Positions 11,890 through 31,784 are shown, numbered from the stretch's first letter. The stretch: DNA of 64,000 nt from Vulcanimicrobiota bacterium (GCA_963777315.1 CAVZQC010000004.1:352001-416000); one strand, 5' to 3'. Made by a program: numbers and translations. Notes: generated from the letters alone by a model not told the origin.

Positions 11890-11937
11890 ATGAACGACGG
11901 TACATTCGTGCGCGGTTCGCAGCGGAGCGCCTGGTAA
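11890..11937 (+). CDS. Spacer mini-ORF MNDGTFVRGSQRSAW (15 aa) exactly tiling the rplB-rpsS gap
   Basis: ATG directly follows rplB TAG; its TAA directly precedes rpsS ATG. Confidence 0.45.
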   Translation: MNDGTFVRGSQRSAW

Positions 11938-12213
11938 ATGGGACGCAGCTTAAAGAAAGGCCCGTTCGTGGCCGAACACCTCATCGCCAAAATCGATTCC
12001 CTGAACGAACGGCGTGAGAAGCGCGTCATCAAGACGTGGAGCCGCGCGTCGGTGATCGTTCCCGCGATGGTCGGCCACACGATCGGCGTGCACAACGGTA
12101 AAGCGCACGTGCCCGTTTTCGTCACCGAGAACATGGTGGGACACAAGTTGGGCGAGTTCGCGCCGACTCGCACGTTTCGCGGTCACGGCGGCGACAAGGC
12201 TGCAGTAAAGTGA
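11938..12213 (+). CDS. rpsS: 30S ribosomal protein S19
   Basis: [27 protein letters not shown]. Confidence 0.98.
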
Positions 12214-12350
12214 TGCAACGTAATTTCGGCGCGCCCACGGGGAGCGCTCATATTAGCAGTGCGTTTATGCGCGCCATGGCTTGGGGGCCCCACGCTTTGG
12301 CGTGGGGGGCGCGGAGTTTGGAACGGAGCGCCTTGTACGATGCAACGTAA
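12213..12350 (+). CDS. Repeat-encoded mini-ORF A1 (45 aa, [13 protein letters not shown]...)
   Basis: TGATG overlap with rpsS stop; ends 11 nt into ORF A2. Confidence 0.35.
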   Translation: MQRNFGAPTGSAHISSAFMRAMAWGPHALAWGARSLERSALYDAT

Positions 12351-12465
12351 TTTTGGCGCGCCCACGGGGAGCGCTCATATTAGCAGTGCGTTTATGCGCG
12401 CCATGGCCGGGGGGCCCCACGCTTTAGCGTGGGGGGCGCGGAGTTTGGAACGGAGCGCCTTGTAA
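12340..12465 (+). CDS. Repeat-encoded mini-ORF A2 (41 aa)
   Basis: Preceded by GGAG; its TAA abuts rplV ATG. Confidence 0.35.
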   Translation: MQRNFGAPTGSAHISSAFMRAMAGGPHALAWGARSLERSAL

Positions 12466-13014
12466 ATGGAAGCCGTCGCGCATCTCAAGTTCGCCCGCAT
12501 GGGGCCGCGCAAACTGCGCCGCGTCGCCGATGCGATTCGCGGCAGGAGCGTCAAAGAGGCGCTCGTGCTGCTGCAATTCGCCGGAGTGTTCGCCGCAGAG
12601 CCGATGGAGAAATTACTGCGCAGCGCCGTCGCCAACGCAGGCAACAACCACGACATGAATACGGACGAGTTATTCGTCACCCGCGTTACGGTCGACGGCG
12701 GCCCGGGCGGACGTTTCACCAAACGATTGGATCCCCGTGCGCAAGGGCGTGCCAACTTCAAGCGCAAGCGGATGGCTCACGTAACGGTTGTCGTCGGCGA
12801 GCAGCCGCCGGTGAAAAAGCGGCGCAGCTCGGGCGGCGCGTCGATCGGCGTGAAACGCGCAACGACGCGTAAGGGCGCCGCGGCCGGAGCCGCCGGCGCA
12901 AAAGCGCCTGCCAAGCGTAAAGCTTCAGCCCGCAAAACTGCACCGCGCAAAACTTCAACGCGCAAAGCGCGTCCCTCCAAGGCTGGATCAGCCGCAGGCG
13001 AAAAGGCGATTTAA
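12466..13014 (+). CDS. rplV: 50S ribosomal protein L22 with Lys/Ala/Arg-rich C-terminal extension
   Basis: [27 protein letters not shown]; ~65 aa basic tail. Confidence 0.97.
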
Positions 13015-13985
13015 TGGGACAGAAAATTCATCCGGTCGGCCTGCGTCTGGGCATTACGCGTACCTGGGACAGCCGTTGGTTCGAGAAAAAGCACTACAAA
13101 GAGTGGCTGCACGAAGACGTAAAAATCCGCAAGTACTTTGCTCGGCTCGTTCGTCCGGCTGCCATCTCCAAGATCGAGATCGAGCGCAGGGCCAATCAAG
13201 CCCGCGTCATCGTCAATACAGGCAAGCCCGGCATCATCATCGGCAAGCGCGGCGTGGGGATTGAAGAGATCCGCAAAAACATCGAGCAGCTGACCGGCAA
13301 AAACGTCCAAGTCAACGTGATGGAGATTAAGCATCCGGAACTCGACGCGCGGCTGGTCGCGCAAAACATCGTCGATCAGCTCGAAAAGCGCATAGCGTTT
13401 CGGCGTGCGATGAAACAGGCGATCATGCGCACGATGAAAGCGGGTGCGCGCGGTATCAAAGTTCAAGTTTCCGGACGCCTGGGCGGCGCCGAGATCGCGC
13501 GTACCGAGCGCAATGCCGACGGGAAAGTGCCGTTGCACACGCTTCGTGCCGACATCGATTATGCGCAAGTCGAGGCGTTCACAACGTTCGGGCGGATCGG
13601 CGTGAAGGTGTGGATTTACCGCGGTGAAGTGCTTCCGGATCACACGCGCGGACCCGAACGCGAATCGCGCTCGGACCGCCCCCAATTCCGCGACCGCCGC
13701 GAGCGGGGCGGCCGTGGTCGCGGCCGCACCGGCACCGGCCAGCGTCCGGCGCAGTCCGCCGGTGAAACGCCTTCAGGTGAAACGCTTTCAACGGAAGAAG
13801 CGCCGGTTTCCGACGTATCGGAGGCGCAGCAGATCGTTCCCGCGGCGCAGCCGATCGTTCCCGAGGCGCAGCCGATCGTTCCCGGGGCCGAGCAGATCGT
13901 GCCTGAGGCGCAGCAGAACGTTCCCGAGACGCCGGCCGGCGTCACGTCCGATGCAGCGGAGGATGGCAGCGATGCTAACCCCTAA
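13014..13985 (+). CDS. rpsC: 30S ribosomal protein S3 with long C-terminal extension
   Basis: [36 protein letters not shown]. Confidence 0.98.
13821..13925 (+). repeat. 5 x 21 bp coding tandem repeat (EAQ(Q/P)IVP) in the S3 tail
   Basis: GAGGCGCAGCAGATCGTTCCC-like unit repeated five times. Confidence 0.9.
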
Positions 13986-14406
13986 ACGAGTCAAATGGCG
14001 CCGGGTTCATCGCGGCCGCATGCGCGGCAAAGCGGTGCGCGGCAGCTCGCTCACGTTCGGCGAGTACGGGCTGCAGGCGCTTGAGCCGTGCTGGATGACC
14101 AATCGGCAGATTGAAGCCGCACGTATCGCGATGACCCGCCACATCAAGCGCGGCGGCAAAGTATGGATCAAAGTGTTTCCGGACAAGTCGGTTACGAAAA
14201 AACCGGCTGAAGTGCGCATGGGCGCGGGCAAGGGCAATCCCGAATTTTGGGTCGCCGTGGTGCGGCCCGGGCGCGTGCTGTTCGAGCTTTCCGGCGTTGC
14301 ACCGGACGTTGCGCGGCGAGCGCTGCAGCTTGCCGCCTCGAAGCTTCCTATCGGAACGAAGATTCTTTCGCGTGAGGAGATTCCCCAGGAGCGTGGCGCA
14401 GAATGA
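13972..14406 (+). CDS. rplP: 50S ribosomal protein L16
   Basis: [27 protein letters not shown]. Confidence 0.98.
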
Positions 14407-29643: not shown

Positions 29644-30039
29644 TTGGCAGCCAAGAAACAAGTCAAAACGCGCAAGAAGCGCGAGTTCAAAAACATTCAG
29701 TCCGGCGTGGCCCACGTTCACGCATCGTTCAACAACACGGTCGTAACGATTTCGGACAATCTGGGCAACGTCATCGCGTGGGCTTCGGCGGGAAATCTCG
29801 GCTTCAAAGGCTCGAAGAAGTCGACTCCGTTCGCCGCGCAAATGGCTGCCGAAGCGGTGGCGCGCAAGGCGATGGAGCACGGCATGAAGGCCACCGAAGT
29901 TCTGGTAAAAGGACCCGGCGCCGGTCGCGAAGCGGCAATCCGTTCGCTGCAGGCCACCGGTTTGGAGATCACGCTCATCAAAGACGTCACGCCGATCCCG
30001 CACAACGGCTGCCGGCCTCCAAAGCGCCGGCGCGTATAG
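29644..30039 (+). CDS. rpsK: 30S ribosomal protein S11
   Basis: GGAG plus TTG start; [27 protein letters not shown]. Confidence 0.97.
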
Positions 30040-30048
30040 AGAGAACGC

Positions 30049-30705
30049 ATGTCACGCTATACTGGACCCGTATGCCGTTTATGCCGTCGCGAAACCGCGG
30101 CGAGCAAAACGGGCGAAAAAATCAAACTGTTTCTCAAAGGCGACCGCTGTTTGAGCAAAAAGTGCGCCGTCGAGCGCCGCGGCACGGCGCCGGGCCAGAA
30201 GACGCAAGGCAAACAGCGTCAAAAGGTTTCCGAATACGGCCGTCAGCTGCGAGAGAAGCAGAAGATGCGCCGGTATTACGGCGTGCACGAAACGCAGTTC
30301 GAGAATTACTTTCGCGAAGCCGCACGCGTTCCGGGTCAGACGGGCCGCACCTTCCTGCAGCTGCTCGAGCGCCGTCTTGACAACGTCGTCTATCGTTTGA
30401 ATTTGGCGAACAGCCGCGCGCAGGCGCGCCAACTCGTTACCCACCGCCATTTCCGCGTGAACGACCGGCTGGTCAATATTCCTTCGTACATCCTCAAAAC
30501 CGGCGACGTGATCAGCGTCGGCGAACGCAGCAAGAAATCGCCGGTGTTCGAATCGAATTTCGAGGTTGCGCGAAACCGCCGAGCTCCCGAGTGGCTCGAG
30601 TACAACGACGCGGATCAGTCCGCGCGCGTGGTGCAGCTGCCCAGCCGCGAGCAGATCGACACGCCGGTCGACGAGCAGCTGATCGTCGAATATTATTCTC
30701 GTTAG
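30049..30705 (+). CDS. rpsD: 30S ribosomal protein S4
   Basis: [34 protein letters not shown]. Confidence 0.98.
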
Positions 30706-30820
30706 CCTTTTTTACGCGAGAAACCAGTAACCAAAGCCGCTCCTAGGCGTGCGATCGCAGGCGACCCCGTGGTCTGCTGCGGATAACGTAAGGAGCAATA
30801 AAGGAACCCGAACACCGACC

Positions 30821-31747
30821 ATGACCGTATTGGATATGCCGCAAGGCGCAAGCATCGAAGTACGCGAGCGCCGCGATAACTACGCCAAGTTCGTGATCGA
30901 GCCGCTGGAACGCGGCTTCGGCATCACGCTCGGCAACGCGCTGCGGCGGATACTGCTCAGTTCCATCCCCGGAGCCGCCGTCACGTACATGAAGATCGAC
31001 GGTGTGCTGCACGAATTTTCGACCATCCCGGGAATCGTCGAAGACACCATCGCCCTGATGCTCAATCTCAAGGGCCTGCCCGTCAAGCTCAACACCGACG
31101 AACCCAAAGTGCTCACGCTCAGCGCGGGCGGCGAAAAGGAAGTGACCGCAGCCGATATCGCACCCGACGCCGACGTCGAGGTGCTGGATCCCGGCTATCA
31201 CATCGCTACGCTGTCTTCCAAGTCCGCCAAGCTCTCGATGGAGATCGGCATAGAAACCGGGCGCGGTTACGTTACGGCCGATCGCCAGCGCAACGTCGAG
31301 CACATGATCGGGCTCATCCCGCTGGACTCGATCTTCTCGCCCATCCGCAAAGTCAACTTCACGGTAGACGATACGCGCGTGGGTCAGAACGTGGACTTCG
31401 ACCGCCTTACCATCGAAATGGAAACCAACGGCTCGGTGACGCCCGACGAGGCGCTGGCCACAGCAGCCCAGATCATGCAAGAGCAGCTGGACTTGTTCGT
31501 CGACTTCACCAACGAAGAGAAGCCGTTGCCTCAGGCGCCGACCAGCGAATGGGACATTCCGGTCGAAACGCTCAACCTTTCCGTGCGCTCCTTCAATTGC
31601 CTCAAACGAGCGGGAATCTCCAAGGTTTCCGAATTGCTCGACATGAGTGAGGACGAGATCATCAAAATGCGCAACTTCGGCAAGAAGTCGCTGGACGAGA
31701 TCAAGCAAGTTCTCGAAGAACGCGGCCTCTCGCTGCGCCCGTCATGA
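30821..31747 (+). CDS. rpoA: RNA polymerase alpha subunit
   Basis: EPLERGFGITLGNALRR, LSVRSFNCLKRA, NFGKKSL. Confidence 0.98.
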   Translation: MTVLDMPQGASIEVRERRDNYAKFVIEPLERGFGITLGNALRRILLSSIPGAAVTYMKIDGVLHEFSTIPGIVEDTIALMLNLKGLPVKLNTDEPKVLTLSAGGEKEVTAADIAPDADVEVLDPGYHIATLSSKSAKLSMEIGIETGRGYVTADRQRNVEHMIGLIPLDSIFSPIRKVNFTVDDTRVGQNVDFDRLTIEMETNGSVTPDEALATAAQIMQEQLDLFVDFTNEEKPLPQAPTSEWDIPVETLNLSVRSFNCLKRAGISKVSELLDMSEDEIIKMRNFGKKSLDEIKQVLEERGLSLRPS

Positions 31748-31784
31748 GAATCACTGGACGATTTTACTAATGGAAGCACTGTAG
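31744..31784 (+). other. Two chained mini-ORFs (MRITGRFY* 31744-31770; MEAL* 31770-31784) tiling the rpoA-rplQ gap
   Basis: ATGA overlap with rpoA stop, TAATG junction between the two, TAG abutting rplQ ATG. Confidence 0.5.

Follow-up and report, generated by a model that had tools for sequence, protein, structure and literature searches.

Why should the spacers between ribosomal protein genes be spanned by short open reading frames (ORFs) that begin on or next to the stop codon of one gene and end on or next to the start codon of the next? The question is raised by a 64,000-nucleotide (nt) stretch of DNA from a Vulcanimicrobiota bacterium (GCA_963777315.1, CAVZQC010000004.1:352001-416000; hereafter the window), where an initial annotation described such mini-ORFs in nearly every spacer of at least 18 nt in the S10/spc/alpha cluster, and read them as an unbroken ribosome relay kept by this lineage as an operon-wide design. 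The two long spacers of the cluster are tandem copies of a repeat, a point absent from that annotation, and inserts of this and other kinds, sporadically distributed among relatives, are mostly bridged in frame at junctions where genes otherwise nearly touch. We consider it probable, on sequence evidence, that selection has kept only those inserts that preserve translational coupling, a reading that we favor over design.

Bridging ORFs and the junctions they occupy

The ribosomal cluster was annotated by hand and every ORF named previously was translated; all 11 of the claimed mini-ORFs are open, with their starts and stops where they had been placed. Twelve spacers of at least 18 nt, fusA-tuf among them, were compared with 3,000 base shuffles. 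Under a tight rule (both ends within -4..+3), four are bridged against a shuffle mean of 0.50, a result equaled by 4 of the 3,000 shuffles; under a medium rule (-8..+5 and -11..+5) the count is seven against 1.19, and under a loose rule (up to 11 nt) nine against 2.33, neither being equaled by any shuffle. Bridging in the cluster thus exceeds chance in the very control proposed with the initial annotation, and ‘nearly every’ spacer is an apt description under the loose rule, though not under the other two. The spacers named there as unbridged or weak (rpsD-rpoA, fusA-tuf and rpsE-rplO) are indeed without a bridge. Genome-wide, by crude home-made gene calls, 64 of 731 spacers are bridged against 53 in shuffles, which is near chance, and a relay running through the genome's other operons is not seen; the enrichment in the ribosomal cluster is real and local.

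For comparison, 100 S10-spc regions and 29 rpoA loci were fetched and their genes placed by tblastn; two loci from unpublished genomes were left out, and similar spacers at one junction were merged into a single event. The host group consists of soil bacteria, the closest rplN relatives being 86-97% identical and mostly labelled Vulcanimicrobiota, Eremiobacterota or WPS-2. Most junctions in these relatives are ancestrally plain -1/-4 overlaps or gaps of a few bases, and inserts are sporadic, falling at different junctions in different genomes among the ~100 relatives. We termed a junction tight if its gap is at most 4 nt in at least half of the relatives, a classification by gap alone; at such junctions, 44 of ~99 S10-spc loci lack any spacer of at least 40 nt.

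Where inserts of at least 60 nt do occur at tight junctions, 48 of 64 independent events form a single stop-to-start ORF, whereas shuffling the whole spacer gives 7.0, and shuffling with the terminal 8 nt of both ends left in place gives 20.8. The effect depends on frame: the bridges number 6 after deletion of 1 nt, 7 after 2 nt and again 48 after 3 nt, and of 54 events with both a start and a stop signal, 48 have the two in the same frame (19.7 expected). It also depends on the class of junction, since loose junctions are bridged in 15 of 68 cases (4.2 in shuffles). In a set of 59 bridges, the start falls within -4..+2 nt in 57 and the end in 50, with 3' gaps of -4 (11), -1 (13), 0 (10), +1 (12) and other values (13). 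Sorted into four crude sequence types, inserts at tight junctions are bridged in 22/24, 5/5, 4/4 and 3/3 cases, and unclassified ones in 27/47; the first of these types, the repeat of the window (family A, described below), is bridged in 9 of 20 cases at loose junctions. At rplB-rpsS, where the median gap is 1 nt, all 14 long inserts are bridged. Long spacers at rpsD-rpoA are bridged in one case of 49, and those at rpsK-rpsD and rpsE-rplO are not bridged. A genome of the same genus (G001) carries other spacers of other lengths whose geometry is nearly the same at rplB-rpsS, rpsQ-rplN (a 64-nt insert with the window's -4/-4 geometry) and secY-adk (a 99-nt ORF), and shows no bridge at the window's remaining junctions. 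Frame and junction geometry are therefore kept as sequence diverges, as had been anticipated.

The peptides, likewise, are disposable, as had been supposed. Every one of the three frames of the conserved DNA motif of family A is in use (23, 9 and 4 of 36 copies; 24, 19 and 7 of 50 in a second count), and the encoded peptide is therefore irrelevant. Bridges range from 4 to 140 codons, and three window bridge peptides, that of the 140-codon ORF at rpsQ-rplN included, are without a Pfam match. A repeat already cleared of stop codons was considered and rejected: of 100 frames not in use, 43 are open, much as in shuffles (0.51), and copies without a downstream start are open in about half. The element is therefore not built stop-free, and filtering or adjustment has acted on every copy that survives.

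A structured repeat at gene boundaries

The long spacers of the window are tandem arrays of 2 x 127 nt (12212-12464) and 3.2 x 126 nt (14898-15296), which share a 3' module composed of a G/C hairpin, a hairpin ending in GGAGCGCC, about six T/A-rich bases and a start codon. They belong to an unnamed structured repeat of ~120 nt, family A, for which a covariance model of length 119 was built on 60 copies. This model finds 13 copies in the window genome (G000), 36-72 in each of five genomes picked as copy-rich, and matches in 23 of 41 genomes of the same taxonomic family as compared to one of 18 from another family in the class; 60 of the family's 151 genomes contain a strict sequence pattern, the reversed form of which, used as a control, has no match.

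The structure of family A is maintained by compensatory change. Of the cells, 95.9% are paired (83.4% when shuffled), with 121 double changes against 30.5; one helix, imposed by the search pattern itself, carries no weight. Both pairs of the terminal mini-stem are retained in 27 of 29 distinct variants (6.7 permuted). In the rpsS-rplV copy, the terminal hairpin contains a Shine-Dalgarno (SD)-like GGAG 6 nt upstream of the rplV start. The element is modular, one 3' module being combined with several 5' modules: the rpsQ-rplN array joins the family A 3' module to a different 5' module (a 12-bp hairpin) that recurs in four metagenome loci (L373, L380, L406, L447). Shorter relics of family A also occur, and a near-identical 123-nt relative of the window's rpsS-rplV unit is located at rplB-rpsS in another locus (L043). 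Tandem unit lengths of 126, 123 and 66 nt are all multiples of three. At least three further repeat types (~96-274 nt; L091/L108/L124/L132, L040/L045/L097/L146 and L048/L050) bridge ribosomal junctions in the same manner.

Family A sits at gene boundaries. A start codon lies 5-7 nt past the motif in 47 of 90 copies from the family genomes and 55 of 122 from a separate metagenome set. In the former set, 55 of 90 copies are in sense orientation between co-directional genes and 14 are antisense; in seven antisense copies (L274, L277, L280, L284, L285, L305, L327), the 3' end of the element is 0-7 nt from the stop of the upstream gene, and therefore one end of the element marks a gene boundary in either orientation. 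Antisense copies between co-directional genes are bridged in 4 of 11 cases against 1.5 expected, a comparison of few cases.

Bridging by the repeat is not a ribosomal speciality. Just two of the 90 family-wide pattern matches are ribosomal; of the 55 that lie between callable co-directional genes, 34 are bridged (8.4 expected). The metagenome set gives 39 of 56 (9.7 expected), falling to 16 and 10 after deletion of 1 and 2 nt and standing at 38 after deletion of 3 nt. Non-ribosomal neighbors include ATP synthase, NADH dehydrogenase and purine genes.

Several possible identities for the repeat were tried and rejected. No Rfam covariance model for a known RNA family (ribozyme, r-leader) matches it: the window spacers give no match at gathering score, and 12 element loci give none at E values up to 1. 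An HDV-like ribozyme fold was ruled out on topology, by eye. The 3' end of the 16S rRNA is ordinary, which argues against a longer or otherwise altered pairing of the anti-SD to the motif, and a guide RNA matching its flanks through a variable loop is not indicated, since the longest match is 5.2-5.4 nt against 4.9 nt, a figure inflated by tandem copies.

As to mobility, the Y1 (HUH) transposase (PF01797) that would go with a REP/REPIN or IS200/IS605-derived element is found in none of six genomes (the window genome and the five copy-rich ones, 86-97% complete); among the five, the TnpB domain (PF07282) is found in one, and IS110 and reverse transcriptase in none. None of 60 upstream neighbors (of 87 prepared) matches a transposase family. 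The mobilizing enzyme is thus not found among the four families searched, a search to which DDE families and integrases were external. Viral contigs give no repeat match, and plasmids just one, of 30 nt. Direct repeats of at least 4 nt flank 36 of 54 filled sites (29.7 permuted), and those running through the start codon have a mean length of 4.2 nt against 3.9 nt (p 0.038), a weak duplication signal. The nearest empty sites are 86-94% alike, too distant to fix the ends of the element; the consensus fold has no terminal inverted repeat, and its 5' boundary is not fixed. The mechanism of its mobility is inferred. A literature search, with most subscription papers outside its coverage, found no paper on the family A repeat or on Vulcanimicrobiota spacers.

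Proposed translational coupling and competing explanations

We propose that small mobile hairpin repeats (family A and at least three other sequence types), junction duplications and relics of gene loss come to separate genes that were translationally coupled. An insert at a tight junction would block reinitiation, which fails beyond ~20-40 nt, and its hairpin would hide the downstream ribosome-binding site, thereby lowering expression of an essential gene. Reinitiation is nearly abolished by ~20 nt, and 38 nt reduce it by 80-100% in E. coli (PMC10666635). Survivors would be inserts in which three features are aligned, namely a start codon where the upstream gene stops, an open frame, and a stop codon where the downstream gene starts, such that the ribosome could reinitiate on a throw-away ORF, melt the hairpins, terminate at the next start and reinitiate there. 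This solution would be easily reached, the old overlap donating the start and the element end the stop, and tandem expansion by multiples of three would preserve the bridge. Out-of-frame inserts would be lost because the gene behind a coupled junction would be starved by any insert across which no ribosome is carried; we infer both this fitness cost and the translation of the mini-ORFs from comparative sequence. Predicted folding is consistent with such dependence: the energy needed to open the start region has a median of 11.3 kcal/mol for bridged and 8.8 kcal/mol for unbridged genes (140 and 171 events), the former approaching the 12.8 of native overlaps, and medians of 11.7-12.5 kcal/mol are predicted for bridged tight junctions and family A as compared to 8.2 behind unbridged loose spacers.

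Several observations weigh against selection for coupling. For the rplN start in the window, a fairly open region is predicted (7.5 kcal/mol); some of the geometry is given from the outset, as the element end supplies TAA or TAG and the old overlap a start (~21 of 64 when only the inner sequence is shuffled); several short bridges in the window are individually unremarkable, being matched by 13-21% of shuffles; 16 of 64 inserts at tight junctions and about one third of non-ribosomal ones are unbridged; and events were merged according to how similar their spacers are, without a tree, which leaves some of them non-independent. The window's own indels are unreliable as well, because three essential genes carry frameshifts, at approximately 19030 (rplO), 19455 (secY) and 21710 (map), which are probably assembly indels.

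An open frame might instead be kept chiefly to hold ribosomes on the inserted RNA, protecting it from Rho or nucleases, with reinitiation at the next gene incidental. The genome has a rho gene, long untranslated stretches destabilize E. coli transcripts (PMC10666635), and bridge starts cluster tightly at the upstream stop. Coverage, however, needs no stop at the next start, where most bridges end, and the same region of the transcript accommodates long spacers with no bridge (48 of 49 at rpsD-rpoA); we regard protection as an unlikely chief cause.

The relay originally envisaged, with linker ORFs adopted throughout the lineage as an operon design that passes on autoregulation or stoichiometry, is largely refuted and in our judgment very improbable. 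It could account for the enrichment of the cluster over the genome background and for the shared geometry in G001, yet most relatives have plain overlaps, the inserts occur sporadically and belong to several families unrelated to one another, and the same repeat acts alike at non-ribosomal genes. Neither is the relay unbroken: besides the unbridged rpsD-rpoA, rpsK-rpsD and rpsE-rplO, the cluster is physically split, the 5.7 kb between rpsJ and rplC and the 7 kb between rpsM and rpsK being taken up by unrelated genes, some on the opposite strand.

We assign a similarly low standing to a pure by-product, in which the stop/start overlap is copied on insertion and the frame follows from a constant length of the element, without selection. 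Short direct repeats through the start codon and tandem units divisible by three are what such a process would leave; inserts, however, vary in length from ~60 to 415 nt and use three frames, each frame is open in about half of the copies and yet the one used is the open one, and family A is bridged far more often at tight than at loose junctions. That the mini-ORFs encode functional small proteins is scarcely credible: some C-termini recur, since the DNA motif recurs, but one and the same DNA gives bridges in three frames, the peptides vary widely in length, three of those in the window lack a Pfam match, and no codon-level conservation is seen by eye across copies. Chance or assembly artefact, to which the frameshifts and a high GC content favorable to open frames might point, is rejected for the pattern as a whole, which no shuffle of the window equals under the two wider rules and which is replicated in ~100 other assemblies and in metagenome contigs, though single short cases may be chance.

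The coupling that we propose has precedents, foremost in the MIRUs of mycobacteria, mobile repeats that insert at start codons and carry an ORF coupled to the gene (PMC12548453), the ORF overlapping both neighboring genes (PMC3184786). The concept is thus not undescribed, as the initial annotation had supposed. Like MIRUs as described there, family A is a dispersed GC-rich intergenic repeat with tens of copies per genome (~40-50 for MIRUs) and with filled and empty sites in relatives; it sits at operon start codons, its ORF ends meet both flanking genes, and it lacks a transposase of its own. The phylum differs, as does the unit (~120 nt, 126-127 in the window, as compared to the 40-100 nt given for MIRUs). 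In family A, further, several covarying hairpins are nested, 5' modules are interchanged, the spacing is not fixed at -4 (-4, -1, 0 and +1 are all common) and the target-duplication signal is weak, where filled MIRU sites have tetranucleotide direct repeats; at least four sequence types converge on bridging. Its tandem expansion also resembles MIRU-VNTR. The repeat works like a MIRU but is probably a separate family; set against MIRU descriptions, it is not classed as one, because the length and the fixed -4 spacing fail, target duplication is weak and the phylum is another.

Other systems share parts of this behavior. Termination-reinitiation at ATGA and TGATG overlaps shows the geometries found at both bridge ends (PMC6728339, PMC10666635), and its steep dependence on distance (PMC10666635) may supply the selective pressure; unlike the pairs of real genes known from these sources, one partner here is a disposable ORF derived from inserted DNA. 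In integrons, experiments have shown that ORF-11 in attI1 and the short ORFs of attC hairpins deliver ribosomes to the next gene (PMC8876359), and there too an ORF for a non-functional peptide spans a hairpin and feeds the following gene. That hairpin, however, is a recombination feature of integrons, and the sites here are housekeeping operon junctions; no integrase or cassette array was seen, no search having been aimed at them. REP/REPIN, MITEs and neisserial REP2 are likewise small GC-rich palindromic intergenic repeats (PMC3184786), and REP2 shares a position directly upstream of ORFs but brings a promoter and its own start, not a bridge (PMC3184786). Family A has no evident terminal inverted repeats, and its hosts no Y1 transposase in the six genomes searched. 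TAACTGA repeats of Beggiatoaceae lie between genes just before start codons, ribosomal protein operons included (PMC4679880); unlike family A they are simple 7-nt repeats, and no bridging ORF or coupling is proposed in the part of that paper available.

We would go further only tentatively. Family A may represent a class of mobile elements not described before, at once modular, structured and strand-specific, that home to gene boundaries and make the downstream gene dependent on coupling by burying its ribosome-binding site, its mover lying outside the Y1, IS110, TnpB and reverse transcriptase families; hundreds of independent insertions would then map the obligately coupled junctions, and relay ORFs would be a general rule of operon evolution, not a mycobacterial oddity. 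This broader proposal is possible, if rather doubtful. Under selection for coupling as such, a MIRU anecdote from a single genus becomes a counted, frame-controlled rule in another phylum, and evolution provides evidence that, in ribosomal operons, ribosomes that have terminated scan only short distances. The junctions that would need coupling include rplB-rpsS, rplV-rpsC and secY-adk, and those that would not, rpsD-rpoA and rpsK-rpsD. Annotators are warned that such ORFs, of up to 140 codons, are not genes; for experimenters, they offer natural coupling linkers together with an unexplained mobile element.

Individual junctions and other features of the window

The features discussed are collected in Table 1, together with three repeat loci elsewhere in the window genome.

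Table 1. Bridging ORFs, repeat units and structured RNA in the window, and repeat loci on contigs C1 and C2 of the same genome (G000).
Feature	Position	Strand	Remarks
rplB-rpsS bridge ORF	11890..11937	+	15 codons; tiles gap exactly
Family A full unit 1, rpsS-rplV	12212..12338	+	127 nt; 107 bits
rpsS-rplV ORF	12213-12350	+	start on rpsS stop (TGATG); continues into repeat unit 2
Family A full unit 2, rpsS-rplV	12339..12465	+	111 bits
rpsS-rplV ORF	12340-12465	+	TAA abuts rplV ATG
Terminal hairpin of repeat	12435..12459	+	5-bp stem, GGA/GGA internal loop, 3-bp covarying mini-stem
rpsQ-rplN bridge ORF	14877..15299	+	140 codons, GTGA to ATGA; in frame across three 126-nt units
rpsQ-rplN tandem array	14898..15296	+	3.2 x 126 nt; 57-61 bits per unit
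rplX-rplE mini-ORF	16023..16055	+	TAATG start; 8-nt overlap with rplE start
rpsN-rpsH mini-ORF	16781..16801	+	weak; strong SD inside spacer
secY-adk mini-ORF	20545..20574	+	start at -1; 10-nt overlap; flanked by two ATGCG direct repeats
map-rpmJ mini-ORF	22021..22047	+	ends in ATGA
rpmJ-rpsM mini-ORF	22172..22189	+	starts 8-11 nt from rpmJ stop
Structured RNA, unbridged rpsD-rpoA spacer	30739..30795	+	conserved
rpoA-rplQ, two chained mini-ORFs	31744-31770, 31770-31784	+	ATGA, TAATG, TAG abutting ATG
Tandem array before alaS-like gene	G000 C2:510850-511292		unbridged
Tandem array before another gene	G000 C2:905383-905581		66-nt units; bridged
Repeat copy before kinase-like gene	G000 C1:448019-448099		bridged

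The individual bridges of the window differ in origin and in strength. The 3' part of the rplB-rpsS spacer is a worn copy of the family A 3' module (weak model match at 11910-11930, 6.3 bits, E 3.3), and the two chained ORFs at rpsS-rplV overlap by 11 nt. The secY-adk spacer looks like a junction duplication. At map-rpmJ, infA occupies the junction in ~40 relatives and recognizable infA tails remain in some, so that the mini-ORF is possibly an infA relic. The rplX-rplE bridge is a modest case, equaled in 21% of shuffles. At rpsN-rpsH, the GTGA arises free from a terminal TGG (Trp) codon followed by TGA, and with a good SD site present the mini-ORF may be chance. The rpmJ-rpsM mini-ORF is probably chance: under the medium rule, short spacers at this junction are bridged in 0 of 15 cases, the window's own among them, and rpsM has its own SD. 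The chained ORFs at rpoA-rplQ are not found in G001.

The unbridged rpsD-rpoA junction is a counter-example, in which an old spacer holds a conserved structured RNA in place of a bridge. Its RNA motif occurs in 38 of 57 spacers and as a single copy in the window genome, shows compensatory changes at 13 of 19 pairs, has no Rfam match, and is a candidate ribosomal-protein-binding leader.

The cluster differs in other respects from its usual content. The rpmD gene (L30) is not in the cluster (18627-18652) and was not found in the genome, which is 90% complete; infA, also not in the cluster (22016-22044), has two copies elsewhere that are 57-59% identical. The interruptions at rpsJ-rplC (3791-9485) and rpsM-rpsK (22577-29625) contain genes for a PAS/GAF/SpoIIE sensor, an acyl-CoA dehydrogenase, a DUF72 protein, a penicillin amidase and a copper-amine-oxidase N-domain protein. 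Several ribosomal proteins are extended: rplV has a long Lys/Ala-rich tail (12790-13014), rpsC an acidic tail of 21-nt repeats (13680-13985), and rplO a Lys-rich N-terminal extension (18652-18750) that is common in relatives.

The 23S rRNA gene of the window spans 3749 nt and contains one group I intron by Rfam (46456-46739) and a second insert at ~47296-47570, neither with a long ORF; the second, of ~275 nt, is intron-like by eye and has no intron match, and a further insert of ~190 nt at ~45770-45960 is, by eye, possibly an intervening sequence. The 16S gene is enclosed by a 31-nt inverted repeat (41832-41865 and 43925-43955), the usual processing stem.

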